15,204 bases of DNA, taken from IMG/VR virus record IMGVR_UViG_2913177423_000006, positions 1 to 15,204 of that record; one strand, given 5' to 3'. A program made the position numbers and the translations under genes. Shown here piece by piece: positions 776 to 15,204 of the stretch (the first letter of the stretch is position 1; each line of letters opens with the position of its first letter). Under the pieces are notes generated by a model. That model worked only from the letters and a program-made list of their open reading frames with translations. It searched no databases and had not been told where the DNA came from. Source of the stretch: a virus (taxonomy: Duplodnaviria; Heunggongvirae; Uroviricota; Caudoviricetes).

Positions 776-3586
776 TTATTTTTTTAGAGATTGCATTCGT
801 TCATTGAATATGTCCAATGTGTCTTGAAATTCAACAAAGCCTCTATCCTTTATAAGGATTTTAATTAAGTTAGGAAAATCACTTTCTACACCAGCTGTAA
901 TGAAATCTAACTCGCCTAATTTATTCGGGATGTTTTCAGAAACAAATTTGTTAATAACCTCAAGAAATTGATCAGGCATGGCACATCCGCTTGCGACTAA
1001 ATGCAAACATTCCATAATATCGCTTACTGTTGCCAGTGGTAGGTTTAAAATATTACTGTTAATAAACTTGTCTATAATGTCAACGACCTCAGGAGAGCCA
1101 ATCCTTTTGATGTTCAATAATAAACTCTTAGTGATGGATCTTTTCCACTTATCATCAAATAATTGTATTTTTGTTAACGCTAATGTTAATAGTTCAGTGT
1201 TTTTGTATTCGTAATTATGATTCTCTGATAATATGTAAATGTTTCGTAAGATATTGGAGTTAATTACATGCTGGTCATAACCATTTAACTCTCCTGTATT
1301 GATTTTTATAAGTATTACATCCAGGATTTTTAACATATCATCATGGGATTTTTGATACAAAAACTCATTCACAGCTAGAAGATTATGTATGTTTTCATAA
1401 ATATTTATGTTATTAGTTCTGCCTTCTAACAAAGGAAGCAAACCATTTATTATTTTCTTTAACTGGTTTGAACTCCACGGAACACATCCTAATATAATCA
1501 ATAAATTATTGGTCCATCGATCTATTGAAGTGGTATGAATAAAATTTTTATTTTTCAACCTAATCAGGTTGCATATGTTTTCGAGAGAGTTGAGTAAATA
1601 TTTCTTAATATGGTGAACTTCTCTTTTGTCAAGTTTGCTGGTGCTGATTATTATTTTGTCTTTTATTACCTTACTTAAAAATTTTTTGAGTTTTTCTGTC
1701 TCGCAGTATTTTATTAACATAAATAGATCGATTCTATTAACATAGAATATCTCTTCGCATAGATAGTGTTCGAGGCTACTAAGAATATTAAATTCGAAAA
1801 ATTGTTTAACCTCTTTATATTCTTCAATTAAAATTTCGTTGCCTAAAATGAAATACACATAAGGGTACAGTTTCGCTCTTGTTTTAAATTCATCATTGGA
1901 AAATGCTATTCCACCACTCTTTCTTATTTGTGAGTACCCTAAATTCTTCTTCGATTCAACGTCAAATCGATAGTAAGCTTTGTATATTTCATTAAATTCA
2001 AGCATCTTTACTAATTCTTGTAGCTCACTTTGCACCCCCCGTGGAAAATCAATTATTTTACTTTTAAACTCAAATGGAGTATGGCTTTCCATTATTGATT
2101 TACAATCTTCATCAATGTCCTTACCGTTACAGTGTAAATCCGACTTCAACATCCTGTAAGCATAATCAAAATTAGACATGTGAATGGTGGCGAGAATATA
2201 GTTTCTCTCATTAAGATGAAGCTTTACTTTCGAAATAAGAATATCGAGAAGTTTGCCATATTCCTTGTTAATAAGAAGTATTTCAGCATTATCCTTTGAA
2301 TAAGCGAAAGAAATCTTATTGTATAGCTCAGACTCTAATTCTGAAGAACTAATCACCTCATACAGTTTCGAGTCATAACTAACTGTATTTATAAATGCCT
2401 TTTCCAAAATAGATGAGAATGTCTTTTTTAAGTGAGTATTTTTACTCAAAATGTCATTAAGGTATATGCTATTTATTTTCCTGCTATACTCGTCATAATC
2501 AGTCGTCAAAATATTATTGTGGGAGGTTAGTTTAACCCCAGACTTATCATAATCAATGGTACTATTAGTTAATTTTTTACTGATCTGCTCAGGGAGCAAT
2601 ACTTTGTATTGTGTTAATGCTTTTAGTTTGCTATCAACATATTTATTTATTTTTTTTGTTACAATACATTGAATATCATTCTTCAATTTATTTTTATCAA
2701 AATCAGACATTCTCAGGTCATCTTCTATTTTTTTTACCTTTGACTCAGTATAGATCAGGGTCCTCTTTATAAACTCATCTTGGTTTTTAACAAGCTTGAA
2801 ATCACTGAAAAATTTTGAATAAAGATCATGATAGCTAATGTCAGTATTCATCGGTGTCAACAAGGATATCCCATGATTTCTTAAGTAAAGAGCCTGGGCT
2901 GCATCATGATTTTTCTGGAGCAAATATTTTCTTGGTGTTGCTTTTGATATAGTTGTAACCCATGAAACAATCTGTTTTAAATCATAATCACTATAAGAGT
3001 ATCCTAAAAACACAACAGTGTTTGTTGAGAATATTCCTTTTATAAAATTTTCGATAAGTGGAAAATTTTGGCTGTACTGTAAGTAATCATCCTCTTTAAA
3101 AACAAAATTATTCTGTCGAAAATCCCCATGCATCTTTATAATTTTCTTGTCCAAATGACTTTGTGCCAGGTCCACGTCAGAACTAACTAAATCATAAGCC
3201 AATCCTATGTCTTGTGCAGTTTTTTCAAGCAAACTATCCCAGTTGGTTGTAATTATATAGTGGGGGTTTAATTCAAATAGCATCTTATGAAAAAGACTTG
3301 GTTTCAAATCTCTAATTATTGATTTGACTTTTTTAACATAAGAGTTTTGTCCGTATTGAAGAAAGTAAAGTTGGGCTATTTTTAAATAATCATTTTCTTC
3401 AGACAATCCTAAGTCGTCTTTTAGCTCATTTATTAACTCCCTCCAGGTTGGTATTTTTATTAATTCCGTTTCGCTGAATTTAGAAAAACCAGCACCAATA
3501 AAAAGAACTAACTTATTATCTTGACTGGCATTCAATATTTCGTTCAAGTCATATTCAGAAAAAGAAAGTGGATTTAAATTTATCAT
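776..3586 (-). CDS. SIR2-domain protein, 936 aa: N-terminal SIR2-type NAD+-hydrolase domain plus ~650-aa helical C-terminal region; candidate single-gene antiphage defence protein (DSR1/DSR2-like)
   Basis: Long uninterrupted ORF. N-terminus carries SIR2-type motifs: glycine-rich LVLFIGAGFS (res 26-35), IITTNWDSLLE (Asn115), IIKMHGDF (His153), VVFLGYSYSDYDL. Asn-His spacing of 38 residues. The gene is visibly far more AT-rich than its neighbours (by eye, roughly 25-30% GC against about 50%). No partner gene (TIR, HerA, Argonaute) nearby. Confidence 0.8.
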   Translation of the reverse strand: MINLNPLSFSEYDLNEILNASQDNKLVLFIGAGFSKFSETELIKIPTWRELINELKDDLGLSEENDYLKIAQLYFLQYGQNSYVKKVKSIIRDLKPSLFHKMLFELNPHYIITTNWDSLLEKTAQDIGLAYDLVSSDVDLAQSHLDKKIIKMHGDFRQNNFVFKEDDYLQYSQNFPLIENFIKGIFSTNTVVFLGYSYSDYDLKQIVSWVTTISKATPRKYLLQKNHDAAQALYLRNHGISLLTPMNTDISYHDLYSKFFSDFKLVKNQDEFIKRTLIYTESKVKKIEDDLRMSDFDKNKLKNDIQCIVTKKINKYVDSKLKALTQYKVLLPEQISKKLTNSTIDYDKSGVKLTSHNNILTTDYDEYSRKINSIYLNDILSKNTHLKKTFSSILEKAFINTVSYDSKLYEVISSSELESELYNKISFAYSKDNAEILLINKEYGKLLDILISKVKLHLNERNYILATIHMSNFDYAYRMLKSDLHCNGKDIDEDCKSIMESHTPFEFKSKIIDFPRGVQSELQELVKMLEFNEIYKAYYRFDVESKKNLGYSQIRKSGGIAFSNDEFKTRAKLYPYVYFILGNEILIEEYKEVKQFFEFNILSSLEHYLCEEIFYVNRIDLFMLIKYCETEKLKKFLSKVIKDKIIISTSKLDKREVHHIKKYLLNSLENICNLIRLKNKNFIHTTSIDRWTNNLLIILGCVPWSSNQLKKIINGLLPLLEGRTNNINIYENIHNLLAVNEFLYQKSHDDMLKILDVILIKINTGELNGYDQHVINSNILRNIYILSENHNYEYKNTELLTLALTKIQLFDDKWKRSITKSLLLNIKRIGSPEVVDIIDKFINSNILNLPLATVSDIMECLHLVASGCAMPDQFLEVINKFVSENIPNKLGELDFITAGVESDFPNLIKILIKDRGFVEFQDTLDIFNERMQSLKK

Positions 3587-4072: not shown

Positions 4073-4237
4073 TTTCAACGTCTTTTCCCGTCTATTAAAA
4101 TCCAACAAACCCGCATATACTCTAGCTTTGAGCGCCCCAGATAGTGTTTTAACGTCTATCAATATCTCCTAAAATCCACGTCTTTTGGGGGGATATTCGG
4201 GGGTATATGCTGTGTGGGCTACTGGAGATACCCCCAA

Positions 4238-5428
4238 ATGAAACTAAATGCCCGTCAGGTCGATACGGCCAAACCGAAAGAAAAACCCTATAAACTGGCC
4301 GATGGTGGTGGGCTTTATCTGCTTGTTAATCCCAATGGTTCCCGGTACTGGCGTTTAAAGTACCGGGTAGCCGGAAAAGAAAAGCTGTTGGCGCTGGGGG
4401 TATATCCCGATGTAACCCTGGCTGATGCCAGGGCGAAACGAGATGAGGCCAAAAGGGGTATGGCTGGGGGGATCGACCCGAACGAAGCGAAGCGGGAAGA
4501 AAAATTGAACCGCGAAGCGCAAATCAAAAACACCTTCGAAGAAATCGCCAGAGAGTGGCATACAGAACGGCAGAAGAAATGGTCTGAGGGGTACGCCTCG
4601 GACATTCTGGAAGCATTCAGTAAAGACATATTCCCTTGGATTGGAAAACGCCCCATCACGGAAATAAAGCCCCTTGATTTGCTGAATACGCTTAAACGCA
4701 TCGAGAATAGGGGAGCGACTGAAAAGGCCCGTAAGGTTCGCCAGTGGTGCGGGGAGGTCTGGAAGTATGCGATCGTTACCGCCCGCGCAGAATATAACCC
4801 CGCCCCTGATCTATCTGTGGCTATGGAAGGACACGAAGGGGAGCACTTCCCCCATCTGGAAGCCGAAGAGTTACCCGAATTTTTCCAGACGCTGGCGACG
4901 GCAAAAAGTAACGTTCAGGTTATTTTGGGGCTGCGTCTGCTTATTCTTGTGGGGTTACGTCCGGTTGAATTACGCGCGGCCCCGTGGTCAGAGATTGATT
5001 TTGATAATGCCTTGTGGGAGATCCCCAAAGAGCGAATGAAGAAAAGACGTCCGCACGTTGTCCCGCTTTCTCGCCAGGCTATGGTTATTCTCGGGCAATT
5101 AAAAGAGTTGTCGGGCCGCAATCCTTTCATTTTTCCGGGCCGGAACGACCCGCGAAAGCCAATGAGTGAAGGAGCAATTAATCAGCTAATAAAGCGACTC
5201 GGGTATAAGGGCAAAGCTTGCGGGCATGGTTTCCGACATACCATGAGCACAATTTTGTATGAGAAAGGGTATAACACCGAATGGATCGAAACCCAGCTTG
5301 CACATGTTGATAAAAATACCATCCGTGGCACATATAATCATGCCCGCTATCTGGATGGACGCCGGGAAATGCTTCAATGGTATGCCGACTATATGGAATC
5401 GCTGGCGAGTGGCAGGGTAAAAGATTAG
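4238..5428 (+). CDS. int: Tyrosine integrase, P4/CP4-57 IntA type (396 aa)
   Basis: N-terminus MKLNARQVDTAKPKEKPYKLADGGGLYLLVNPNGSRYWRLKYR is the classic P4-type integrase arm-binding start; C-terminal catalytic region has HGFRHT and a conserved Tyr in RGTYNHARY. GGAGA Shine-Dalgarno 10 nt upstream of the ATG at 4238; the ORF-track start at 4214 is a GTG extension. Sits immediately downstream of the tRNA fragment. Confidence 0.9.
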   Translation: MKLNARQVDTAKPKEKPYKLADGGGLYLLVNPNGSRYWRLKYRVAGKEKLLALGVYPDVTLADARAKRDEAKRGMAGGIDPNEAKREEKLNREAQIKNTFEEIAREWHTERQKKWSEGYASDILEAFSKDIFPWIGKRPITEIKPLDLLNTLKRIENRGATEKARKVRQWCGEVWKYAIVTARAEYNPAPDLSVAMEGHEGEHFPHLEAEELPEFFQTLATAKSNVQVILGLRLLILVGLRPVELRAAPWSEIDFDNALWEIPKERMKKRRPHVVPLSRQAMVILGQLKELSGRNPFIFPGRNDPRKPMSEGAINQLIKRLGYKGKACGHGFRHTMSTILYEKGYNTEWIETQLAHVDKNTIRGTYNHARYLDGRREMLQWYADYMESLASGRVKD

Positions 5429-5505: not shown

Positions 5506-5998
5506 ATCATTTTCAATGAATTATGATTTTGGAAATTTTATAAAAAACACCAAGATTACTAATCTATTGATTAATATGAAATATTTCTTTTTTTGATTAT
5601 TAATTGTGCTCTTGATTGTTGTTTTTATGGTGTTAATTTATAAAAATCTTATTTATAGGAATTAACATTATATAGTTGGCACTTTTTGCTAAAATCTGTT
5701 TTTATTGTGTTTTATTTTTATTTCATTTTTGTTGTTGTTTGTTTGATTTTTAGTGTCTTTATATCTGGCTAATTGATTTCACTCAAACCATAAATCCTTT
5801 CAGAGGCTTCTAGAGTCTTCCTGAGGCTTAAATTGACTTAACTAAAAGTCAAGCCCCACATCCCACATACATCTTTTTGACATGCACTTATGGCGTGAAT
5901 AACAATGACTTCATCCAATCTACAGGCATCCTATAAAGTCAATGTCTGTATATAGAAAGATATTACATAACGTTTGAATGTTAATAGCGGGTGTGAAT

Positions 5999-6217
5999 AT
6001 GAGAAATGATGCAATGCAGCTTTTAAACCAAGGAAAAAGATTGATCCGCCTGCCTGAAGTTATGATGCTTACGGGGCGGTGTCGCGCCAGTATTTATAAA
6101 GATATCAATGCAAATGTCTTTCCAAAGCCGATTAAAACCGGCCCGCGTTCTGTCGCATGGGTTGAGGGTGAGATCAGCGACTGGATCGACAACAAAATCA
6201 AAGAGCGCAAAGTGTAA
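5999..6217 (+). CDS. alpA: AlpA/Vis-family phage transcriptional regulator (excision activator-like), ~72 aa
   Basis: RLIRLPEVMMLTGRCRASIYKDINANVFPKPIKTGPRSVAWVEGEISDWI matches the AlpA-family pattern (RLP.V...TG..R.TIY.....FP.P...G.R.V.W...E...W), in the usual position after a P4-type int. Start chosen at the ATG at 5999 (MRNDAMQ...); the ORF-track start at 5978 lacks an SD. Confidence 0.75.
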   Translation: MRNDAMQLLNQGKRLIRLPEVMMLTGRCRASIYKDINANVFPKPIKTGPRSVAWVEGEISDWIDNKIKERKV

Positions 6218-6416: not shown

Positions 6417-7289
6417 ATGAACATTACTGATATTATCAGCCATCGCGTATATCGTGATGCGGATCTTGCTGTCATTAATAACACGGCATTTATTCAGCCT
6501 TATGACGGTTGTCACCGTGGTTTGTATGAAATGCGCGTTATTGAACTTTATCGCCTGAATAAAATGATGCACCTTACCCACGAATATAAATCTATTTCCG
6601 GGGAAAGCGTAGGCATTCCGGCGACTAAAGAGGAACTGTTTACACTGGTTAATAAAGGGCATGAACTTTGCCAGTCTGAACGGGAAAAGCTGGCGGCACT
6701 TGAAGCAGAATTGCAGCGTCTGCCAAGCCCGGCTGTAATTCCTGCGCCGCAGACGATTAAAGAAGCACAGCAGGCCCGTAAATCACTAGAAGATGAAAGA
6801 TTCAGACTGCATCACGCAGCAATTAAAAATCAAGTCAAGGCACAGCAGGAAGAGTTATCCATCAGACAAAACATTCTGGCATTGCTCGCGCCGGTTATTG
6901 ATGTGTTGTTGGCCGTGGAAGATGTGGAACTGCTCGATCTGCGCCGTTCCCTGCCTAAGTCATCCCTCGATGCTAAGGCATTCAAAAAGGCGATTTCTGA
7001 AATTGAGTGTGCTGACCTTGCCTGGCAGAAAATGGATAAACTGGAGATTGCCCTTAACAAGGTGGTGAACAACTGCACATATCGCCCGGAAGGAAGCATT
7101 AATCCCCGTTTTGTTAACCCTCTTAATGAAGATAAGCGGGAACGCGCCGAAATATCACGCGATTATTACAGCTCTGAAATGGCCTTTATTCATACGGTGA
7201 TGAGTGCAGATGAATATTTAAATTATATGTTGCCGATCCGTCACCAGCAGCGCGCGCAACGACTCACATTAGAAAGAAATATCAACTAA
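6417..7289 (+). CDS. Hypothetical 290-aa protein with a central coiled-coil-like region; possible scaffold-like partner of the downstream capsid-family gene
   Basis: Clean ORF whose stop lies 10 bp before the next gene, which has an AAGGAAG SD. Middle segment (ELCQSEREKLAALEAELQRL ... QVKAQQEELSIRQNILALL) is heptad-like. No family recognised by eye; functional call is inference from adjacency and size only. Confidence 0.6.
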   Translation: MNITDIISHRVYRDADLAVINNTAFIQPYDGCHRGLYEMRVIELYRLNKMMHLTHEYKSISGESVGIPATKEELFTLVNKGHELCQSEREKLAALEAELQRLPSPAVIPAPQTIKEAQQARKSLEDERFRLHHAAIKNQVKAQQEELSIRQNILALLAPVIDVLLAVEDVELLDLRRSLPKSSLDAKAFKKAISEIECADLAWQKMDKLEIALNKVVNNCTYRPEGSINPRFVNPLNEDKRERAEISRDYYSSEMAFIHTVMSADEYLNYMLPIRHQQRAQRLTLERNIN

Positions 7290-7298
7290 GGAAGAATT

Positions 7299-8306
7299 AT
7301 GTCTTATGTAACACCAGATTATTTAACGCAGTATCACGAAAACCTGATTAAGTCTTTTAATATTAAATATAAAAACGAAGATACGGGGTATTTCACCATA
7401 TCACAGCCGGAAAAAGCATCTCCGGATGCATGGGGATGTTCCACGCTTGATGTTAAAGGCTCGTCCTGGCTGATTGATAATATTTCATTACTGGACATTA
7501 CCGGTGCGGATGGCACGACGATCACCATCGGTGATGGTTCCCTTTATACAGGCCGTGCAAAGGAAGGTCGCTTTCATAAGAAACTAAAAACCAACGGAAC
7601 ACCTTTTTTATTATCAGAAACGGATTCCTGCGCCTCATTGACTTATGAAGAAATGGCGGTAATGGCAAACGCGAAAAATTTCAGTAATGAAATGATCATT
7701 TTTTTCAAGAAGGCCGTGGTGCGGGATATGCTCCGTATTGGATTTAACGGCAAGATGATTGCCGAAAATACCAACCCGGAACAATATAAAAACGGCGAAG
7801 ATATCAATATTGGCTGGCACTCGCTGGCAAAAACATTCAATAACGGTTCACAAATTATTTCTGATGCTTTCGCACTGGGGAAAGGGGGTGATTTTGCCGA
7901 TGTTCACGATCTGGCTGATTGCCTCATCACGTCAAAAATCCCCGAAGGTCAGCGCGAAGATCCGGGCCTTGTGGTGATGGTTGGCGCGCAGCTTGCCGCC
8001 CGCGAACGCCTGAAACTGTTCAACATGGCCGATCAACCACTGACGCTGACGGCGGGGGATATGTTGACAAGCAGTGTCGCCGGTCGTTTTGCCTTTATCC
8101 CGCCGTTTATGCCGGGTAAGCGCCTGGCTGTTACGACGCTGAAAAATTTGCAGATCCTGACGCTGAAACACAGCCAACACTACCGCGCGGAGGATATCCC
8201 GCAACGAGGTGTTTATGAGCATGGCTATTTACGTGAAGAAGGTTACGCGCTGGGGGATGGCTATCTTTACGCGGCCAGCGATGAGAACGCCGTGACGCTG
8301 GTTTAA
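7299..8306 (+). CDS. P2 GpN-like major capsid-family protein homologue (335 aa)
   Basis: Colinear motif matches to my recollection of P2 GpN: RIGFNG vs AGFNG; NIGWHSL vs AVGWLQK; LGKGGDFADVHDLAD vs VGKGGDYASLDALVMD; EDPGLVVMVGAQLAA vs EDPDLVVIVGRQLLA; TTLKNLQI vs ITKLENLSI. AAGGAAG SD 5 nt upstream. Recalled-sequence comparison, not a search, so moderate confidence. Confidence 0.55.
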   Translation: MSYVTPDYLTQYHENLIKSFNIKYKNEDTGYFTISQPEKASPDAWGCSTLDVKGSSWLIDNISLLDITGADGTTITIGDGSLYTGRAKEGRFHKKLKTNGTPFLLSETDSCASLTYEEMAVMANAKNFSNEMIIFFKKAVVRDMLRIGFNGKMIAENTNPEQYKNGEDINIGWHSLAKTFNNGSQIISDAFALGKGGDFADVHDLADCLITSKIPEGQREDPGLVVMVGAQLAARERLKLFNMADQPLTLTAGDMLTSSVAGRFAFIPPFMPGKRLAVTTLKNLQILTLKHSQHYRAEDIPQRGVYEHGYLREEGYALGDGYLYAASDENAVTLV

Positions 8307-8477
8307 AACCTGCTGCAGTACAGCCAGCTTTGACAGTGTTGACCAGATAAAAGAAAACCCCCTCACCGGAACGAACAAGAAACGATGAGAGGGTTTATCA
8401 GGAAGATGATTCTACGCGATGAATTATACCGGGATACAACCGATGCTTACCAGCATAACCACACGACGTAAAAGGGG

Positions 8478-8663
8478 TTATTCCTTTATCGTGTCCAGTT
8501 TCTTACGGCGTTGGCGGCGCTTTATCTCACCCTTTGCCGCAGTTACTAAGAAACCGGCTGTACTTTCTCCAGTTTCCTTTAACTGTTCTATATCCTCCAT
8601 AACCTCATGGGGGATTCTGACGGTGGTCATTTGCGATTTTGCATTCTTCGCACCTGTTGCCAT
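8478..8663 (-). CDS. Ribbon-helix-helix (CopG/Arc-like) DNA-binding protein, 61 aa
   Basis: Minus-strand translation MATGAKNAKSQMTTVRIPHEVMEDIEQLKETGESTAGFLVTAAKGEIKRRQRRKKLDTIKE has the RHH beta-strand/helix pattern (TTVRIP.E....IE.L). GGAGA SD 6 nt upstream of the ATG at 8663. Divergent from the small-gene operon. Confidence 0.5.
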   Translation of the reverse strand: MATGAKNAKSQMTTVRIPHEVMEDIEQLKETGESTAGFLVTAAKGEIKRRQRRKKLDTIKE

Positions 8664-8787
8664 TACTGTTCTCCACTCGAATAGGTGTATTTCAGTATAC
8701 GCAACTAAAAAACAGAAAAAAAGACTTGAAGTGTATTTCACCATACGTGTAGGATTGATTTGCAAGGTGACATACACCTGTAAAGTA

Positions 8788-8820
8788 AAGCCCGGCAGTG
8801 TGGGGACACTAACCGGGCTT
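8788..8820 (+). promoter_or_regulatory. Strong nested hairpin/palindrome in the divergent control region upstream of the small-gene operon
   Basis: Outer stem aagcccgg (8788-8795) / ccgggctt (8813-8820), inner stem agtgt/acact with gggg loop. No U-tract follows, so it is more likely an operator or structured leader than a terminator. Confidence 0.35.
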
Positions 8821-8849
8821 CTGACCAACACGTTAACAGGACTAACGCT

Positions 8850-9053
8850 ATGGCTAAGCCGAAGTGTAACCAAACTCACCCTAAAAATCGCGTATTTCTC
8901 TTTCTTGCGGTATCAAGGGCTGACATGCAGGACAAACCACACCGCGAACAAATCACCGCGTACAGCGAACAGGAAGCCCGTTCCATGCTGGCCGGTCGCT
9001 TTATCCTCTGCTTTGCTGGCTGTCTGCCGGTTCAGGAGGCGCGCCATGTTTAA
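8850..9053 (+). CDS. Possible small leader ORF (67 aa, or 42 aa from ATG at 8925); stop overlaps next gene's start (ATGTTTAA)
   Basis: Open frame whose TAA (9051-9053) overlaps the ATG at 9046. No recognisable domain; C-terminal hydrophobic stretch RFILCFAGCLPV. May be non-coding leader. Confidence 0.3.
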   Translation: MAKPKCNQTHPKNRVFLFLAVSRADMQDKPHREQITAYSEQEARSMLAGRFILCFAGCLPVQEARHV

Positions 9054-9294
9054 CCCACTGGACAACCGTAAAGCGGCGGCGCTTAACCCGTTCCACGATG
9101 ACTGTTACGATCCGCCAGCCTTTATTAAACCGGGTTCAAAAGTAGTGGTTGAAATTGATTCCCGTGAAATGGAAGTCGCTATTCTAGCCGCTTATGACTA
9201 CGGACTGGACGCGCTGAACGACGATGGCCGGGAAGAGCTTAACCGCTTAATTGCTGACCTGAAAGACCAGATAACGGAGGCGCGGTATGCATAA
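9046..9294 (+). CDS. Hypothetical small protein (82 aa), first gene of the translationally coupled operon
   Basis: AGGAGG SD 6 nt upstream of the ATG at 9046. Stop overlaps the next start (ATGCATAA at 9287-9294). The ORF-track start at 8419 is a stop-free upstream extension. Confidence 0.65.
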   Translation: MFNPLDNRKAAALNPFHDDCYDPPAFIKPGSKVVVEIDSREMEVAILAAYDYGLDALNDDGREELNRLIADLKDQITEARYA

Positions 9295-9712
9295 TCTGCT
9301 TAATTCACCGTTGCCAGTGTCTATGGATCTCTTTCAGGCTGGCGAGATGTGCGGGCATTTTGTCGCGCGGTTAACGGATGAAAGTTGTGTTGACGAGACT
9401 GAACGCGTCGCACTTTGCGGACGTCTGGCTTTTGCCCTGCGTTCTCTTTCATCTCTTTGTGATACAGACTATCCATCGCATATCCAGGCGCAATTAACCG
9501 CGACTGCTATTCCTGCTCCCTGCGTACCTGATGAGTGGATCGACGCGACGATCATGACGGGCTATTGCACCGCCTTAAATGATGCGCTGCTTAGTCGCTC
9601 CCTTCGTATGGACGTTGAAACACAATTACGCTGGCTTTTGCATGACATGATTAATTTACTTGTCAGATATCTGAAACAGCCTTGTATTAAGGCGGGAGTA
9701 GATCATGTCTGA
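9287..9712 (+). CDS. Hypothetical Cys-rich protein (141 aa)
   Basis: Start overlaps the previous stop and its own stop overlaps the next start (ATGTCTGA at 9705-9712). No family recognised. Confidence 0.6.
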   Translation: MHNLLNSPLPVSMDLFQAGEMCGHFVARLTDESCVDETERVALCGRLAFALRSLSSLCDTDYPSHIQAQLTATAIPAPCVPDEWIDATIMTGYCTALNDALLSRSLRMDVETQLRWLLHDMINLLVRYLKQPCIKAGVDHV

Positions 9713-10112
9713 AATTATGCTCACACCGTTTCACGTTGACCGCCATTTTTACGATCTGGTTTACGGTGCTTCATTTTTTGCGGATGCATTACCTGCAATG
9801 AATGATATCAAGCAGCAGCGGCTTTATTGTCGATTATTGCAATTAAATCTGGTTGTTTTATTTGAAAAACGGTCGCGGGATATTCCCCCAATTCAGTCGA
9901 GTAAAATAAAAATCGCTGATGAGGTTATATTTCTTAATGTCGATAATATTTATCATGCGCTTTCCCTGACTGCCGGGCTGATAAGTCAGGATATCAGTAA
10001 GGGGATTGAAAAAGAACTGGCTGAATATATCAGGGATATTATTAGTATTATTTTTAATGAAATGCGAATGCAGATGGTTGATTATGATCCCTATGAAATG
10101 TGGGACGACTAA
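9705..10112 (+). CDS. Hypothetical protein (135 aa), acidic C-terminus
   Basis: Translationally coupled to the upstream gene; no family recognised. Confidence 0.6.
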   Translation: MSEIMLTPFHVDRHFYDLVYGASFFADALPAMNDIKQQRLYCRLLQLNLVVLFEKRSRDIPPIQSSKIKIADEVIFLNVDNIYHALSLTAGLISQDISKGIEKELAEYIRDIISIIFNEMRMQMVDYDPYEMWDD

Positions 10113-10199
10113 AACAATAATCGATTTATAAGAACTGAAAAACATTTAATTATAACCGTATTTTAACGGGGAGTAATTACGCCCCTGTAAGGAAAATAT

Positions 10200-10469
10200 A
10201 TGTCTGATTTGAATACCATTGCTGTTAATAGTGCTGAAAAATATCTTAGCCTTGAGTGCTTCCATAAACTCAACCGCGCAAGGAATGTTTCATTCCAGAT
10301 GCATTTACAGATCCGTCAGTGTGAGATAAACGGCCTGCCACTTTTATGGATTCCAGATATTTTCAGCTATATCAGCGAAGACATATCCGCCGTTCTGGAA
10401 GAAGCCAAAGTACTTGGCCTTTGCGATAAGTTCACAGGCGAAGCCCGGATCGGTCAGGTCAGTCTTTAA
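10200..10469 (+). CDS. Hypothetical protein (89 aa) upstream of the primase
   Basis: ORF with a GGAAAA region before the ATG; followed by a T-run and GC-rich palindrome gcgccgc-ccgct-gcggcgc (10483-10501) before the primase start. Confidence 0.5.
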   Translation: MSDLNTIAVNSAEKYLSLECFHKLNRARNVSFQMHLQIRQCEINGLPLLWIPDIFSYISEDISAVLEEAKVLGLCDKFTGEARIGQVSL

Positions 10470-10532
10470 TTTTTTGTATTCCGCGCCGCCCGCTGCGGCG
10501 CATTGTCTTACCCATTAATAAAGGTCATACCG

Positions 10533-13265
10533 ATGCAAGGTAAAAAAGTTTCACAGACAGCAGGACGCGCAGCGGGCCAGTGGGAAAATATTCTTGAACA
10601 CCTGGGGATTACTGTTCCTGCGGGTGGTCTTCATGGCCCCTGCCCGATCTGCGGCGGTAAAGATCGTTTTCGCTTTGATAATAAAAAAGGGCGTGGAACC
10701 TGGTTCTGCAACCAGTGCGGCCACGGTGACGGGCTGGATCTGGTCAAACTGGCGCTTTCGCTGGACACCGGGCCAGCCGCTGATCGAGTTGCTGAATTAC
10801 TTCCGGCCCTTCCTCCGCCTGCGGTCATGCAGCCTGCCAGAAAAGAAGCCAGTGACGAAGGTCGCCCACATGACTACTGGCAACGCCTCTTTGCCCGTAC
10901 TCAGCCGGGGGAAAGCCCTTACCTTACGGCGCGGGGGCTGACAGGTTTTGAACTGCCGCTGACCGTTCAGGAGATGAAAACCGCTGGCGGTGTTTTTCCG
11001 GCTGGTTCGCTTTTATTACCGATCACGGACACCGAAGGACGGATGACCGGTGCACAGCTTATCGGCCCGGACAAGGTAAAAGGCTTATGTGCTGGCACCA
11101 GGAAAAAAGGGCGTTTTATCTCTGTCGGGCCGTTCCCGGTGAAAACGCCCGCGCGGATCATTATCTCGGAAGGCTTTGCCACTGCGTTAAGCGCATCCCT
11201 GCTTTCAGAGGGCTGGAGTATTGCGGCGCTGGATAAAGGCAACCTGAAAGACGTTGCGGAGCAAATCCGCCAGAAATGGCCGGACGTGCAGATCGTTATT
11301 GCCGGTGATAATGACTTTTCTGACGGTAAACCCAATCAGGGGAAAGAGTCTGCGATCAAAGCTGCACTGGCCGTTAAGGGATGGATGACCATTCCTCCCG
11401 GACGGATCAAAGTTGACTGGGATGATTACCGCCGTGAATTTGGCCTCCAGCGCGCCCGTGACGCATTCGCGGAAGAACTGCTTAACCCGGCAGACACCGA
11501 AACGCGTTTACCGCATGGTTTCCGCCTGACGAAGGATTATCTTTGGTTTGATCGCCCGCTCAGTGACGGTAGCGAAAGCGGCCAGACTCGCCAGGTGAAG
11601 ATATGTAGCCCGCTCAAAGTGACGGCCATCACCAGCGACGGCGAAGGCGGTAAATTCGGGCGTCTGCTTGAGTGGGAAGACTCCAGCGGATTACGGCATG
11701 AATGGGCGATGCCAATGACAGTGCTTGCCGGAAGCGGTCAGGAGCTGCGGGAGGTTCTGCTTGATAACGGAATGCACTTTATCAGCGTGAACGGCGCGGC
11801 GCGTAGCTATCTGATGGAATACATTTCTAACTGTCGCCCGGTTCGCCGCGTCACCTGCGTTGAAAAAACAGGCTGGTTTAGCGGTGCATATGTTCTCCAG
11901 GATGAGGTGATCGGCAGCGATGCCGGATCGGTGATCCTTCAGTCTGCTATGTCGTCTAAAAATGACTTCCGGGTGAGCGGAACGGCGGCGGAATGGGCGC
12001 AACACGTCGGGCGCTATTGCGCCGGTAATTCCCGCCTGGTGTTCTGCGTCAGTCTGGCGCTGGCCGCGCCGTTGCTGAATCTTATCGGCGTGGGCGGCGG
12101 CGGTTATCACCTTAAGGGCGAATCCACGGACGGCAAGACAACCACAATGAAGGTGGCGGCGTCAGTCTGCGGCGGGCCTGATTTCTGGAAAACGTGGCGG
12201 GCAACCGGAAACGCGCTGGAAGGTATTGCGCTACGCCGTAATGATGCCGCCCTGATGCTGGATGAAATCAGCGAAGTTGACGGCAGAGAGGCCAGCCGGA
12301 TCGCCTATATGCTGGGGAACGGGCAGGGCAAAGCAAGGGGGCGCGTTGATGGCAGCGTCCGCGATCCGGTGACCTGGACATTGCTTTACCTGTCCACCGG
12401 GGAAATCTCTATTGCGGAACATGCCGCCGAAGCCGGAGAAAAGCGAACCGGCGCGGGTGTCGGTGTGCGTATGGTGCAAATACTCAGCGATACCGGAAAA
12501 CATGGCGCTTTCGAAAATCTCCACGGCATGGAAGGCGGTAAAGCGTTTGCGGAATACCTTGAACAGTCCTGTAAACAGTATCACGGTGCGCCGTTCCGCG
12601 AATGGTTGCGCTGGCTGGCGGCAAACCTGACGGAAACTGCGAACCGGGCGCGGGCAATGAAAAAAGAGTATGAACGGACATTATTACCCGAAGATTCCGG
12701 CAAGCAGGTCGGGCGCATTGTGGATCGCTTTGCGCTGTTAGCCGTTGCGGGGGAACTGGCAAGCGAAGCGGGGATCACCGGCTGGCTACCCGGTGAAGCG
12801 TATAACGCTGCAAGAAGCTGTCTGGCGGCATGGCTTAACGATCGCGGACATGCGGCCAACCAGGAAGAAGCCGACGCGCTGGAGAAGGTGCGGCGCTTTA
12901 TTACGGCGAATCAGTACACACGCTTTGCTGACTGGTATGACGAGAAAAACCGCCCGTCAAATATGGTTGGTTTTCGCCGGGTGGAGAAAGGCGGGAACGG
13001 TATCGGCATGAGCAAGAAGGAGAACAGCGGCGATACTGTTAAAGACGGGGACGCCACTAAAGAGCCGGAAACCACATTTTATATCCTGCCCAGCGGATGG
13101 AAGGAGATTTGCGGGACGTCGGACAGCGTTAAAACGGCGAGACTATGCGACGAGGCTGGATGGCTTGTAAAGGATGAAGATCGCCAGCGCCTACAACGTA
13201 CAGTAAGACTACCGGAAATTGGCTTAAAGAAAGTGTATGTGTTCAGCGGCGAAGTGATCGGATAA
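10533..13265 (+). CDS. P4 alpha-type DNA primase/helicase (zinc-binding domain, Toprim primase, P-loop NTPase)
   Basis: Zinc ribbon CPICGGKDRFRFDNKKGRGTWFCNQCGHGDGLD; Toprim motifs IIISEGFATA and VIAGDNDF; Walker A GESTDGKTT and Walker B LMLDEI. Start set at ATG 10533 (MQGKK...); the ORF-track start at 10503 is a TTG. Confidence 0.9.
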   Translation: MQGKKVSQTAGRAAGQWENILEHLGITVPAGGLHGPCPICGGKDRFRFDNKKGRGTWFCNQCGHGDGLDLVKLALSLDTGPAADRVAELLPALPPPAVMQPARKEASDEGRPHDYWQRLFARTQPGESPYLTARGLTGFELPLTVQEMKTAGGVFPAGSLLLPITDTEGRMTGAQLIGPDKVKGLCAGTRKKGRFISVGPFPVKTPARIIISEGFATALSASLLSEGWSIAALDKGNLKDVAEQIRQKWPDVQIVIAGDNDFSDGKPNQGKESAIKAALAVKGWMTIPPGRIKVDWDDYRREFGLQRARDAFAEELLNPADTETRLPHGFRLTKDYLWFDRPLSDGSESGQTRQVKICSPLKVTAITSDGEGGKFGRLLEWEDSSGLRHEWAMPMTVLAGSGQELREVLLDNGMHFISVNGAARSYLMEYISNCRPVRRVTCVEKTGWFSGAYVLQDEVIGSDAGSVILQSAMSSKNDFRVSGTAAEWAQHVGRYCAGNSRLVFCVSLALAAPLLNLIGVGGGGYHLKGESTDGKTTTMKVAASVCGGPDFWKTWRATGNALEGIALRRNDAALMLDEISEVDGREASRIAYMLGNGQGKARGRVDGSVRDPVTWTLLYLSTGEISIAEHAAEAGEKRTGAGVGVRMVQILSDTGKHGAFENLHGMEGGKAFAEYLEQSCKQYHGAPFREWLRWLAANLTETANRARAMKKEYERTLLPEDSGKQVGRIVDRFALLAVAGELASEAGITGWLPGEAYNAARSCLAAWLNDRGHAANQEEADALEKVRRFITANQYTRFADWYDEKNRPSNMVGFRRVEKGGNGIGMSKKENSGDTVKDGDATKEPETTFYILPSGWKEICGTSDSVKTARLCDEAGWLVKDEDRQRLQRTVRLPEIGLKKVYVFSGEVIG

Positions 13266-13362: not shown

Positions 13363-13575
13363 AGTGGGAACAGTGGGAACATAGGGAACAGACTTGATTT
13401 ATAAAAGTTTTATTTGTTCCCAATTACTGTTCCCATATGGTAACAGGTGGTAATGTATTTTAAATCATATGGTTATGTTGATATGCAAAGCGTTGTTCCC
13501 AGTTGTAAAAGAGAGATGGGAACAGGAAAAAGGTATAAATATCAACACTGTTACCATTGTTCCCACTGTTTCCAC
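13363..13575. repeat. Iteron-like array: about 10 copies of octamer TGGGAACA / TGTTCCCA in both orientations; candidate ori/crr-type primase-binding region or integrase arm-type sites
   Basis: Read directly: direct copies at 13366, 13375, 13384 (9-bp period); inverted copies tgttccca at 13415, 13428, 13494; tgggaaca at 13517; tgttacca / tgttccca / tgtttcca at 13549, 13558, 13567 (9-bp period). Confidence 0.7.
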
Positions 13576-13649
13576 CATTTTTGACAATAACAATGTTTAA
13601 TTTCGGGGAAAATGCTTTTCCCTGGCTGGCTAACATCAAAGGTGAAGAA

Positions 13650-14198
13650 ATGAGCATCAAGAAACGTCCTGATGGAAAATGGCTGGTAGATATCCGCCCC
13701 AATGGGCGGAACGGGAAACGCGTTAGGCGTGTTTTTATGCTTAAGCGTGAGGCTGAAAGTTTCATAAGATATACAAAGTGGCGAGCAATGCAGTCTGAAC
13801 CCACAAGAACAATCAAACCAGCATTTGAATATTATACCCTTTATGAAGCGTGTGAAATCTGGTGGCGTTTAGTGGGTCATACAAGAATTAACGCAGAAAC
13901 TGAAAAGCGTCAGCTTGAAAAGACTATCAGGCAAATGGGGAATCCTTATGTTATGGAACTTAAATATACACAATTAATTCAATTTGTAATGTTACGATTA
14001 TATTCATGCAATAAATATGTTTCTATTCGGCGTGATCTTTACAGGCTGTCAGGTATGTTTCGTGATCTGATAAAAATAGGTGAATATAATTCTAACCCCA
14101 TGAAAGGGGTTGGTTCATTAATGAACGAATGTAACCGACGTTTAGCCATACACGTTAGCAATCCTTGCTGGGTTCAATGGTGGAGAGGGGTAAAATAA
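13650..14198 (+). pseudogene. Tyrosine-integrase N-terminal fragment (arm-binding plus core-binding region, 182 aa), lacking the catalytic domain; probable integrase remnant or stand-alone DNA-binding protein
   Basis: MSIKKRPDGKWLVDIRPNGRNGKRVRRVFMLKREAESFIRYTKW is the typical P2-type integrase arm-binding N-terminus. The ORF stops after ~180 aa with no R..HxxR..Y catalytic region. AGGTG SD before the ATG at 13650. Confidence 0.5.
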
Positions 14199-14217
14199 AT
14201 GGGAGTAATAAGTGATA

Positions 14218-14475
14218 TCAGTTTTGAAGCAATTCTTTTATCATTGTTTTTTGTTCCGGCGTCATCATGTCAATCATTGTTTTTACTGCTTTCTCCCCAG
14301 TCAGCGCGCTGGGGCTTAGCGTATGGGAGAACGTCATATTCATAACGAAGGTATGCCCACATTCAACATTATTACAGGCACAATACATATCAGACAGGTG
14401 TGGATGCTTGCGTACTGTCTTTTTTGTTGTTGAATTACTTCCACACTCAGGACAAACAATTTTATGGCTGCGCAT
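14218..14475 (-). CDS. Ogr/Delta-family zinc-finger transcriptional activator (85 aa)
   Basis: MRSHKIVCPECGSNS...YCACNNVECGHTF gives Cys spacing C-x2-C-x20-C-x-C-x4-C with the NV.C motif of P2 Ogr / P4 Delta. GGTGA SD 5 nt upstream of the ATG at 14475; the ORF-track start at 14529 is probably an upstream extension. Confidence 0.7.
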   Translation of the reverse strand: MRSHKIVCPECGSNSTTKKTVRKHPHLSDMYCACNNVECGHTFVMNMTFSHTLSPSALTGEKAVKTMIDMMTPEQKTMIKELLQN

Positions 14476-14895
14476 AATAATCACCACTCGTAAAAGGCGC
14501 ATTATTATACCACTATTTGCATTAAACAAAAAAAGAAGTTGATATAAATTATCAATAATATCATCGTATTATGTTATTCCATTCTTTCCTTGCTTTTATC
14601 TTAGTGTCACGTAATTTGATTTTTTTTTATTTTAATTTTCATGTGGTTACGTTATTTTTGTTAAAGATTGAATTTTACGAAGACTGAAATTACTGAAATC
14701 CTTTGCAATTGATTGCATTTTTTTCAGTCTCAAATTTCATGTAAAACCCCGTTTAACGCCTGTTCTGGCGGTTCTTTCCTGCAATTTTCCAAACTGAAAA
14801 AATTCTCACTACGTAAACACCGTGGGCGTGCGGGTGAGCGCGGTTTTGGTCCCGCTGGCGTTTGCGTCGTAACAAGTCAGAAACATACAACCACA

Positions 14896-14958: not shown

Positions 14959-15204
14959 ATGCAACACGTAAACTATACCGATGCTCGACAGCATTTAGCT
15001 GACCTGATGCAGCAGGCTAATGATGATCGTGCCCCAATCCTGGTTACGCGTAAGGGTGCTAAAAGCGTAGTAATGATCGATGCGGAAGAGTTCGCATCGA
15101 TTCAGGAAACGTTACACCTGTTCAGTAACCCGGCGAACGCCGCACACATTGAAGCCAGCCTTGCATCGCTCGAACGCGGCGATTATGAGGAACTGGACAT
15201 TTAA
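14959..15204 (+). CDS. yefM: YefM/Phd-family type II antitoxin (81 aa)
   Basis: MQHVNYTDARQHLADLMQQANDDRAPILVTRKGAKSVVMIDAEEFASIQETLHLFSNPANAAHIEASL aligns with E. coli YefM as I recall it. Stop codon is the last triplet of the window, so the cognate toxin would lie beyond the window end. Confidence 0.85.
   Translation: MQHVNYTDARQHLADLMQQANDDRAPILVTRKGAKSVVMIDAEEFASIQETLHLFSNPANAAHIEASLASLERGDYEELDI

Follow-up and report, generated by a model that had tools for sequence, protein, structure and literature searches.

Overlapping genes of mosaic content in a likely early operon of a P4-related satellite from Escherichia coli

Introduction

Which functions are encoded by the small genes that precede the primase in a P4-like element, and how might their expression be organised? 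This question is raised by positions 8850-10469 of a 15,204-nucleotide DNA stretch from the IMG/VR virus record IMGVR_UViG_2913177423_000006 (the whole stretch is referred to below as the window), for which an initial annotation had described an operon of translationally coupled small open reading frames (ORFs) upstream of a primase gene. The early operon determines how a satellite is woken and how it makes use of its helper, and uncharacterised small genes are frequent in the same part of P4-like elements (De Sousa and Rocha, PMC8628076).

Our analyses indicate that 8850-10469 is very likely the rightward early operon of an integrative satellite of E. coli that is related to P4, and this identity is well supported by the gene calls, the overlaps between the genes, the Icd-like and epsilon homologies, the P4 gene order and the primase domains. 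The P4-type early operon seems to have been rebuilt here in three ways, namely by a protein repressor in place of the immunity RNA, by a gene shared with helper phages, and by a duplicated rare family that recurs beside a Cro/Ner-like regulator in defence islands. ORF2, ORF3 and ORF4 are concrete candidates for a part in helper induction, host takeover or counter-defence. No new principle is involved, as overlapped small early genes are usual in P4-like elements. The five genes, with lengths in amino acids (aa), and the primase gene that follows them are:

8850-9053, plus strand: ORF1, 67 aa, first translated gene, Icd-like cell-division inhibitor and P4 Kil homologue (NF033153)
9046-9294, plus strand: ORF2, 82 aa, acidic (pI 4.4), of a family common to P2/186-like prophage early operons
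9287-9712, plus strand: ORF3, 141 aa, acidic, 7 Cys, apparent paralogue of ORF4, predicted up-down four-helix bundle
9705-10112, plus strand: ORF4, 135 aa, acidic, low GC content (0.38), apparent paralogue of ORF3, four clusters of homologues
10200-10469, plus strand: ORF5, 89 aa, homologue of P4 epsilon, the helper-prophage derepression protein (PF25738; 'derepression protein' in PGAP)
10533-13265, plus strand: alpha-like primase/replicase, 910 aa, last in the operon (Zn_Ribbon_Prim, Toprim_3 and DUF927; PHROG 1139 DNA primase, 4.6e-167)

Gene organisation and start/stop overlaps

The four ORFs at 8850-9053, 9046-9294, 9287-9712 and 9705-10112 are joined by overlaps of 8 nucleotides (nt) with the form ATGNNTRA, in which the stop codon of one ORF is combined with the ATG of the next. 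These are ATGTTTAA at 9046-9053, ATGCATAA at 9287-9294 and ATGTCTGA at 9705-9712, exactly as given in the initial annotation. A Shine-Dalgarno sequence (GGAGG/GGGAG) is found 5-7 nt upstream of every overlapped ATG and within the preceding gene, which gives all three junctions the geometry of a coupled operon. No other ATGNNTRA junction between ORFs of at least 60 aa exists on either strand of the whole window, and of 2000 dinucleotide-preserving shuffles of 8800-10200, four contained a single one and the remaining 1996 none, so that two or more were never seen. The fifth ORF is not overlapped; it follows a gap of 87 nt and carries a ribosome-binding site of its own, and another gap of 63 nt leads to the primase ATG at 10533.

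We considered that the middle ORFs could be chance ORFs or decaying remnants without function, since they lack any family assignment and have a very narrow distribution. This explanation is hardly credible and is effectively refuted by the selection analysis, in which pairwise ratios of nonsynonymous to synonymous substitution rates (dN/dS) against diverged relatives were 0.05-0.5 for every one of the five ORFs, well under 1 and at substantial dS (0.05-0.15 for ORF2, with dS saturated). Besides, lengths and start sites are kept across E. coli, Salmonella, Enterobacter and Citrobacter, junctions of this kind did not arise twice in any shuffle, and the same five genes are called by NCBI PGAP in an E. 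coli chromosome that is 99.8% identical. From the PGAP calls and the dN/dS values we therefore conclude that the five ORFs are real genes under purifying selection. A longer ORF in the frame of ORF2 (8419-9294) was rejected as spurious, because it extends across the regulatory region and the YlcI gene of the other strand, and because ORF2 homologues all start with MFNPLDN.

ORF1, ORF5 and the comparison with known operons

No domain had been recognised by eye in any of the five proteins. Profile searches run with each of them assigned ORF1 and ORF5 and left ORF2, ORF3 and ORF4 without a family match, so the earlier statement fails for two of the five proteins. ORF1 matched NCBIfam NF033153 (5.1e-18, 64.9 bits, cutoff 25) and is 38% identical to residues 81-134 of the 'cI137' ORF formerly annotated in P4, whose C-terminal part encodes Kil. 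ORF5 matched Pfam PF25738 (3e-22, 78.6 bits, cutoff 27) and shares 45% identity with P4 epsilon over 76 aa (6.5e-19). The idea of new factors in this region had been made dependent on the ORFs not all resembling known P4 early proteins, and such a resemblance was found for these two of the five. By homology, ORF1 would block host division as P1 Icd does via FtsZ, and ORF5 would inactivate the repressor of a P2-type helper; binding to FtsZ has been experimentally shown for P1 Icd only (PMC11897509).

The kil/Icd, epsilon and primase homologies bear out the proposal that this stretch, which precedes an alpha-like primase, corresponds to the early (left) operon of P4. That operon, with the order PLE, CI RNA, kil, (eta), epsilon, orf151, cnr and alpha, is the closest known system. 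Both begin with a Kil/Icd-type gene, include epsilon and end with a primase that has an alpha-type Zn-ribbon/Toprim part, all on one strand, and the annotated cI137/epsilon and epsilon/orf151 junctions of P4 are also 8-nt overlaps. In contrast to P4, a divergent YlcI/YnfO gene and operator-like repeats are present here at the place of the CI/C4 RNA, and epsilon directly precedes the primase, whereas in P4 it stands right after kil. Neither orf151 nor cnr (ORF106, DUF5375) was found by BLAST or hhalign, and ORF2, ORF3 and ORF4 were rejected as their homologues by both methods; three unrelated genes are present instead. The primase itself is 37% identical to P4 alpha over its N-terminal 320 aa (Zn-ribbon, Toprim), while its DUF927 C-terminus is unrelated to the helicase and DNA-binding part of P4 alpha.

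Two other systems share part of this arrangement. The immI operon of P1 (c4 RNA, icd, ant1/2) also has an Icd-family first gene and an antirepressor function in the same operon, and translation of the Icd-family gene is tied to downstream genes there, as the geometry suggests here; in P1, expression of the downstream antirepressor was reported to require icd expression (PMC8201110). Unlike in P1, no C4 RNA match was obtained in our region, no Ant, KilA or BRO domain occurs in ORF2 to ORF5, and the derepressor is of the epsilon type and not overlapped with icd. The YlcI/YnfO-Icd-antirepressor module of Gram-negative capsid-forming phage-inducible chromosomal islands (cf-PICIs) likewise combines YlcI/YnfO with Icd in a capsid-carrying satellite (PMC13612085), but the element described here differs from cf-PICIs in having an epsilon-type protein, an Ogr/Delta gene and a P2-family capsid homologue only.

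Regulatory region and immunity

Between ylcI and icd (ORF1) lies a divergent region of 186 base pairs (bp). The features in and beside it are:

8478-8663, minus strand: YlcI/YnfO-family protein of 61 aa (NCBIfam NF041551, 5.5e-18, above cutoff; PHROG 949, 5.6e-19; PGAP agrees)
8684-8696: 13-bp operator-like repeat, GGTGTATTTCAGT
8730-8742: 13-bp operator-like repeat, AGTGTATTTCACC
8766-8778: 13-bp operator-like repeat, GGTGTATGTCACC, inverted
8789-8819, plus strand: leader hairpin AGCCCGG...CCGGGCT just upstream of the icd ribosome-binding site (RNAalifold consensus)

The repeat pattern matches at four places in the window, where 0.3 would be expected, and three of these fall within 8684-8778. 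The core of the repeat varies with the YlcI allele, being GTGTATTTCA in the window and in the related locus L012 and GTGCGATTCA in L003 and L005 (L numbers denote the loci compared in this study), and a third core type accompanies the DUF3950-like allele of L006. The initial annotation had pointed to kil, immunity and the anti-repressor epsilon as functions of the equivalent region in P4. The kil/Icd gene and epsilon are indeed there, but a P4-type immunity RNA upstream of icd had to be rejected: the Rfam models for the CI or C4 RNA (RF01695) and for isrK-like RNA (RF01394) gave no match in 8400-10600, either at the gathering threshold or at E<=10, and likewise none in the relatives L003, L006 and L012, while as a positive control the same models matched P4 as well as L009 and L010, two satellites of the Ash type. 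Since the RNA models find nothing and the repeats are enriched and co-vary with three repressor alleles, we infer that immunity is protein-based and not exerted by a CI/C4 RNA as in P4. The YlcI/YnfO-family protein is the putative repressor, or immunity protein, and probably binds the three repeats. A fourth copy of the repeat, GGGGTATTTCACC, is located at 7385-7397, inside the gene for the capsid homologue.

Regarding the leader hairpin, its main-stem pairs are identical in all five lineages compared, and only the outermost and the loop-closing pairs vary. Covariation among the five lineages was not observed, and no Rfam family matched. Directly after the hairpin, TCTGACCAACACGTTA is almost invariant over five otherwise diverged lineages. 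Complementarity of one hairpin arm (8789-8804) to ORF4 (9964-9979), with 14 of 16 bases, was judged coincidental, as relatives keep 11 of 16.

Smaller elements surround epsilon, which forms one low-GC block together with ORF4. The gap of 87 nt after ORF4 contains:

10163-10190, plus strand: short G/C hairpin (a palindrome) abutting the epsilon ribosome-binding site

Three unrelated types of intergenic sequence have a hairpin at this place, but the evidence for it is weak, as shuffled sequences reach folding energies as good as that of the complete gap. A promoter-like site is present ahead of epsilon at 10093-10121, and a 7-bp hairpin of G and C only, without a T-run, is located between epsilon and the primase start (10483-10501, plus strand). 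Expression of epsilon or of the primase could be controlled independently by the elements ahead of epsilon or by the hairpin that follows it.

Gene content among related loci

We were curious to know how far this gene set is kept among relatives. From icd to epsilon, the following genes were found:

Window: ORF2, ORF3, ORF4
L006: ORF3, ORF4
L005: ORF3, ORF2, ORF4
L003/L004: ORF3, ORF2, an unrelated 159-aa gene
L012-L015: a 69-aa ORF2-like gene, P0031, the 159-aa gene
L009/L010: an ORF2-like gene, a 63-aa and 64-aa paralogue pair, a 77-aa gene

Gene content is thus mosaic, and for a given pair of loci dS varies about 10-fold among the genes. The junctions are far more constant: in the loci of the window lineage and in L009/L010, all but two of those from icd to the gene before epsilon are 8-nt overlaps (-8), whatever the neighbours. 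The Ash-Icd-type loci L009 (4694-5084) and L010 (6248-6626) hold a tandem paralogue pair of their own (63/67 aa and 64 aa) with -8 overlaps in the same slot; a complete second P2-like integrase is found after the primase in both.

A further 52 Icd loci from species-representative genomes had post-icd junctions of -4 (65 cases) or -8 (54 cases), most commonly in the layout icd[-4]75 aa[-4]Cnr(106 aa)[+14]alpha, and none of the 52 contained the ORF3/ORF4 family. As the junctions there are -4 or -8, overlapping is a trait of P4-like early operons in general, and the locus in the window is not peculiar in this respect. The overlaps had been taken as an indication of tight co-translation; their geometry is real, yet it is nothing special, such junctions being the usual ones in P4-like early operons. 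Canonical P4-like satellites (icd, 75-aa gene, Cnr, 777-aa alpha) resemble the present operon in that an Icd-like gene and overlapped small genes precede the primase. They differ in that their junctions are mostly -4 (ATGA) instead of -8, and in that their 75-aa family and Cnr are unrelated to ORF2, ORF3 and ORF4.

Kinship of ORF2 and of ORF3/ORF4 with the small early families of P4-like elements (75-aa, Cnr, the 63/64-aa pair, 77-aa and others) was likewise not supported by hhalign, with the exception of the 69-aa gene of L012 (7799-8008). The first 11 residues of its product (MFNPLDNRKAA) are those of ORF2, after which the sequence diverges, and hhalign gave a probability of 95% over 56 columns; the gene either is a very divergent relative of ORF2 or arose by recombination at a breakpoint lying just within it. 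Homology of the 159-aa gene of L003 and L012 to orf151, considered on account of a shared C-terminal Y-x-x-YL motif, was not significant.

The families of ORF2, ORF3 and ORF4

ORF2 homologues form 22 clusters, all of them hypothetical proteins. Closer homologues occur in Ash-Icd-type satellites, and distant ones (61-69% identical; L007, L008) in early operons of P2/186-like prophages, not satellites, where the gene is second after cox, before DUF4761 and Fil and upstream of gene A. The P2/186-like early operon (cox, small ORFs, Fil, ..., A) accordingly shares ORF2 with the window, although the junctions of the ORF2 homologues there are short gaps (+10, +7, +1) and not -8 overlaps. Given that the same gene is found in helper-type early operons, we tentatively suggest that ORF2 could act on a target that helper and satellite have in common, such as a host factor or a defence system, while regarding this as somewhat unlikely.

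ORF3 and ORF4 appear to be paralogues in tandem, from a very rare family of acidic proteins. Each is represented by 3-4 clusters among 5.8 billion proteins, and an ORF4 profile searched against 1.84 billion representatives recovered its own cluster and P0031 (5e-4), nothing else. The paralogy is deduced because P0031 matches both proteins, with 37% identity to ORF3 (2e-28) and 32% to ORF4 (4e-12); related satellites have P0031 at the same place. ORF3 was modelled as an up-down four-helix bundle with a predicted local distance difference test score (pLDDT) of 74 and a predicted template modelling score (pTM) of 0.68, for which fold searches returned generic matches, and nothing significant in BFVD.

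Distant members of the ORF3 family are 153-aa proteins (29-30% identical, 2e-13) encoded by the first gene of a two-gene operon, which overlaps by 4 nt with a gene for a Ner/SfsB-like helix-turn-helix protein. These modules, at 9309-9988 in L016, 8042-8706 in L069 and 8013-8725 in L070, sit in integrase-bearing islands of E. coli, which lie beside tRNA genes where the flank was examined (L069 and L070 at tRNA-Asn and tRNA-Phe). For at least two of these three loci, the variable island cargo is defence-like, with HEPN, an AbiE-type toxin, an ATP-dependent nuclease and TerB-N; in L016 it consists of two large hypothetical genes. DNA matches to a module-carrying fragment were detected in 24 of 5426 E. 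coli genomes, some of the matches lying outside the module itself. The two-gene module looks like the regulatory core of these islands. Elsewhere the family is thus found at the head of an operon that also encodes a Ner/Cro-like regulator, and for this reason ORF3 and ORF4 might act as regulator-binding, antirepressor-like proteins, a suggestion we make with low confidence. Taken together, the sharing of ORF2 with helper-type phages and the presence of the ORF3/ORF4 family in non-satellite islands argue against a purely helper-specific role.

The island and prophage homologues also bear on the view that ORF2, ORF3 and ORF4 are replication-control partners of the alpha-like primase that replace Cnr and the 75-aa protein of P4-like elements. 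The three genes hold the position of the latter two in canonical loci, where cnr and the 75-aa family are present in 90% and 61% of P4-like elements, respectively (De Sousa and Rocha, PMC8628076), and every relative with a DUF927-type primase also has the ORF3 family. Nevertheless, similarity to Cnr, ORF151 or the 75-aa family is not detectable, ORF3-family members occur in islands without a primase, and the ORF2 homologues belong to P2-like prophages, which replicate with GpA. We consider a replication-control role quite improbable.

Another explanation, the one put forward in the initial annotation, is that ORF3 and ORF4, perhaps with ORF2, are extra helper antirepressors or interference factors that widen the helper range beyond that of epsilon. 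P1, P4 and the cf-PICIs all place an antirepressor downstream of icd in the same operon, and a duplicated, diverging pair that is replaced in relatives is what diversification of specificity would look like. However, an epsilon homologue is already there, the ORF3 family is also held by non-satellite islands, and the proteins have no similarity to the Ant, KilA, BRO, Rha or epsilon families, which makes this explanation doubtful.

Possible functions and a model of expression

ORF2, ORF3 and ORF4 carry no catalytic signature and are small, acidic and helical; our best guess is that they work by binding other proteins. The following course of events is conceivable for the operon. The YlcI/YnfO-family protein would hold it off via the three operator-like repeats, and transcription would start in the 186-bp divergent region under YlcI control. 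After derepression, ribosomes would load at the icd Shine-Dalgarno sequence, and termination-reinitiation over the three ATGNNTRA overlaps may, judging from their geometry, lead to production of ORF2, ORF3 and ORF4 in step with Icd, while epsilon and the primase, following short gaps, would be initiated separately at their own ribosome-binding sites. By homology, ORF1 would then block division, ORF5 inactivate the repressor of the P2-type helper and the primase replicate the element.

As a broader reading, we speculate that the stretch from icd to epsilon is a fast-shuffling toolbox of small protein-binding effectors held together as a single unit of translation by the constant -8 overlap, in which ORF3 and ORF4 would be a new class of regulator-binding, antirepressor-like proteins, which P4-related satellites with a capsid gene and tRNA-borne defence islands alike would use to sense or trigger induction, and ORF2 an early gene captured from the helper. 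This picture is unlikely. Several observations weigh against the model of expression or the roles proposed for ORF2, ORF3 and ORF4. Translational coupling of ORF1 to ORF4 is deduced solely from the geometry of the junctions, and the promoter-like site read by eye (-35 TTGAAG at 8726-8731, -10 TAGGAT at 8750-8755, overlapped by the middle repeat) is weak, agreeing with the consensus at 8 of 12 positions and not being called by a consensus scan. The paralogy of ORF3 and ORF4 hangs on P0031 as the one bridging sequence family, and a direct comparison of the ORF3 and ORF4 profiles was not significant. ORF2, ORF3 and ORF4 gave no significant match in Pfam, NCBIfam, PHROGs or PADLOC, ORF3 and ORF4 no sequence match in the PDB (a search that covered these two), and fold searches were uninformative; the AlphaFold2 model of ORF2, which consists of three helices, is confident in one of five models and had no meaningful fold match. 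Finally, ORF2 is absent from L006 and ORF4 is replaced by the unrelated 159-aa gene in L003 and L012, so neither of them is essential to the element.

The variable gene content might also be the trace of an arms race, with ORF2, ORF3 and ORF4 as counter-defence proteins that neutralise host defence for satellite and helper. Their small size, acidity and helical nature, a position suited to immediate-early expression, and the variable icd-epsilon content among close relatives agree with this, as does the occurrence of ORF2 in helper-type phages as well as satellites, which is expected for a mutually useful function. On the other hand, the three proteins show no similarity to any characterised protein, and the ORF3/ORF4 family is a conserved core gene beside a regulator in islands with defence cargo, for which regulation of the element is the better fit. 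Counter-defence is an unlikely role in our view, and the regulator-binding reading of ORF3 and ORF4 is the one that we retain, with the reservation expressed above.

Genomic context and distribution of the element

The genes of the element are arranged in the order int, alpA, a 290-aa ORF, the P2-family capsid homologue, ylcI on the opposite strand, the operon, the alpha-like primase and Ogr/Delta. To the left of ylcI these are:

4214-5428: integrase
5978-6217: AlpA
within 6417-8306, plus strand: 290-aa ORF without assignment, directly before the capsid homologue
7299-8306, plus strand: P2-family major-capsid homologue (PF05125, 1e-54, under the NCBIfam equivalog cutoff)

The operon region was present in just 3-4 of 5426 complete E. 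coli genomes. The INPHARED phage collection had no nucleotide match to the region and no sequenced phage with an ORF2 or ORF4 protein match; a single ORF3 match lies within an unverified 1.5-kb fragment. The P4-like marker list of SatelliteFinder comprises int, psu, delta, sid, alpA, Ash (PF10554) and alpha (PF03288) (PMC8628076). Among the ORFs scanned, which did not include every small ORF, int, AlpA and Ogr/Delta were found, and neither Ash (PF10554) nor a PF03288 alpha nor any Psu or Sid similarity was detected. Because the element lacks most of these markers, with a DUF927-type primase and no Ash domain, its lineage is probably under-counted by current satellite finders.

The DNA to the right of the primase (13557-14529 and 14959-15204) holds part of an Int_N-type integrase gene, which is truncated, and a zinc-finger gene of the Ogr/Delta type on the minus strand; at the edge of the window it also holds a Phd/YefM antitoxin gene, whose YoeB partner is present in relatives. 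The truncated Int_N gene was compared with the 'integrase domain' gene of the tRNA islands and found to be unrelated. Relatives are integrated adjacent to a tRNA gene beside proBA; the window itself holds no tRNA.

Adjoining the integrase, a gene of 936 aa on the minus strand (776-3586, GC about 29%) encodes an N-terminal SIR2/ThsA-like domain (PADLOC ThsA, 4e-29). In E. coli JNEC-KY203, whose element is otherwise near-identical, a DUF262 gene occupies the position of the SIR2 gene, and the integrase-side flank therefore looks like a variable spot for defence genes. The pair of SIR2 gene and integrase recurs in other E. coli genomes.

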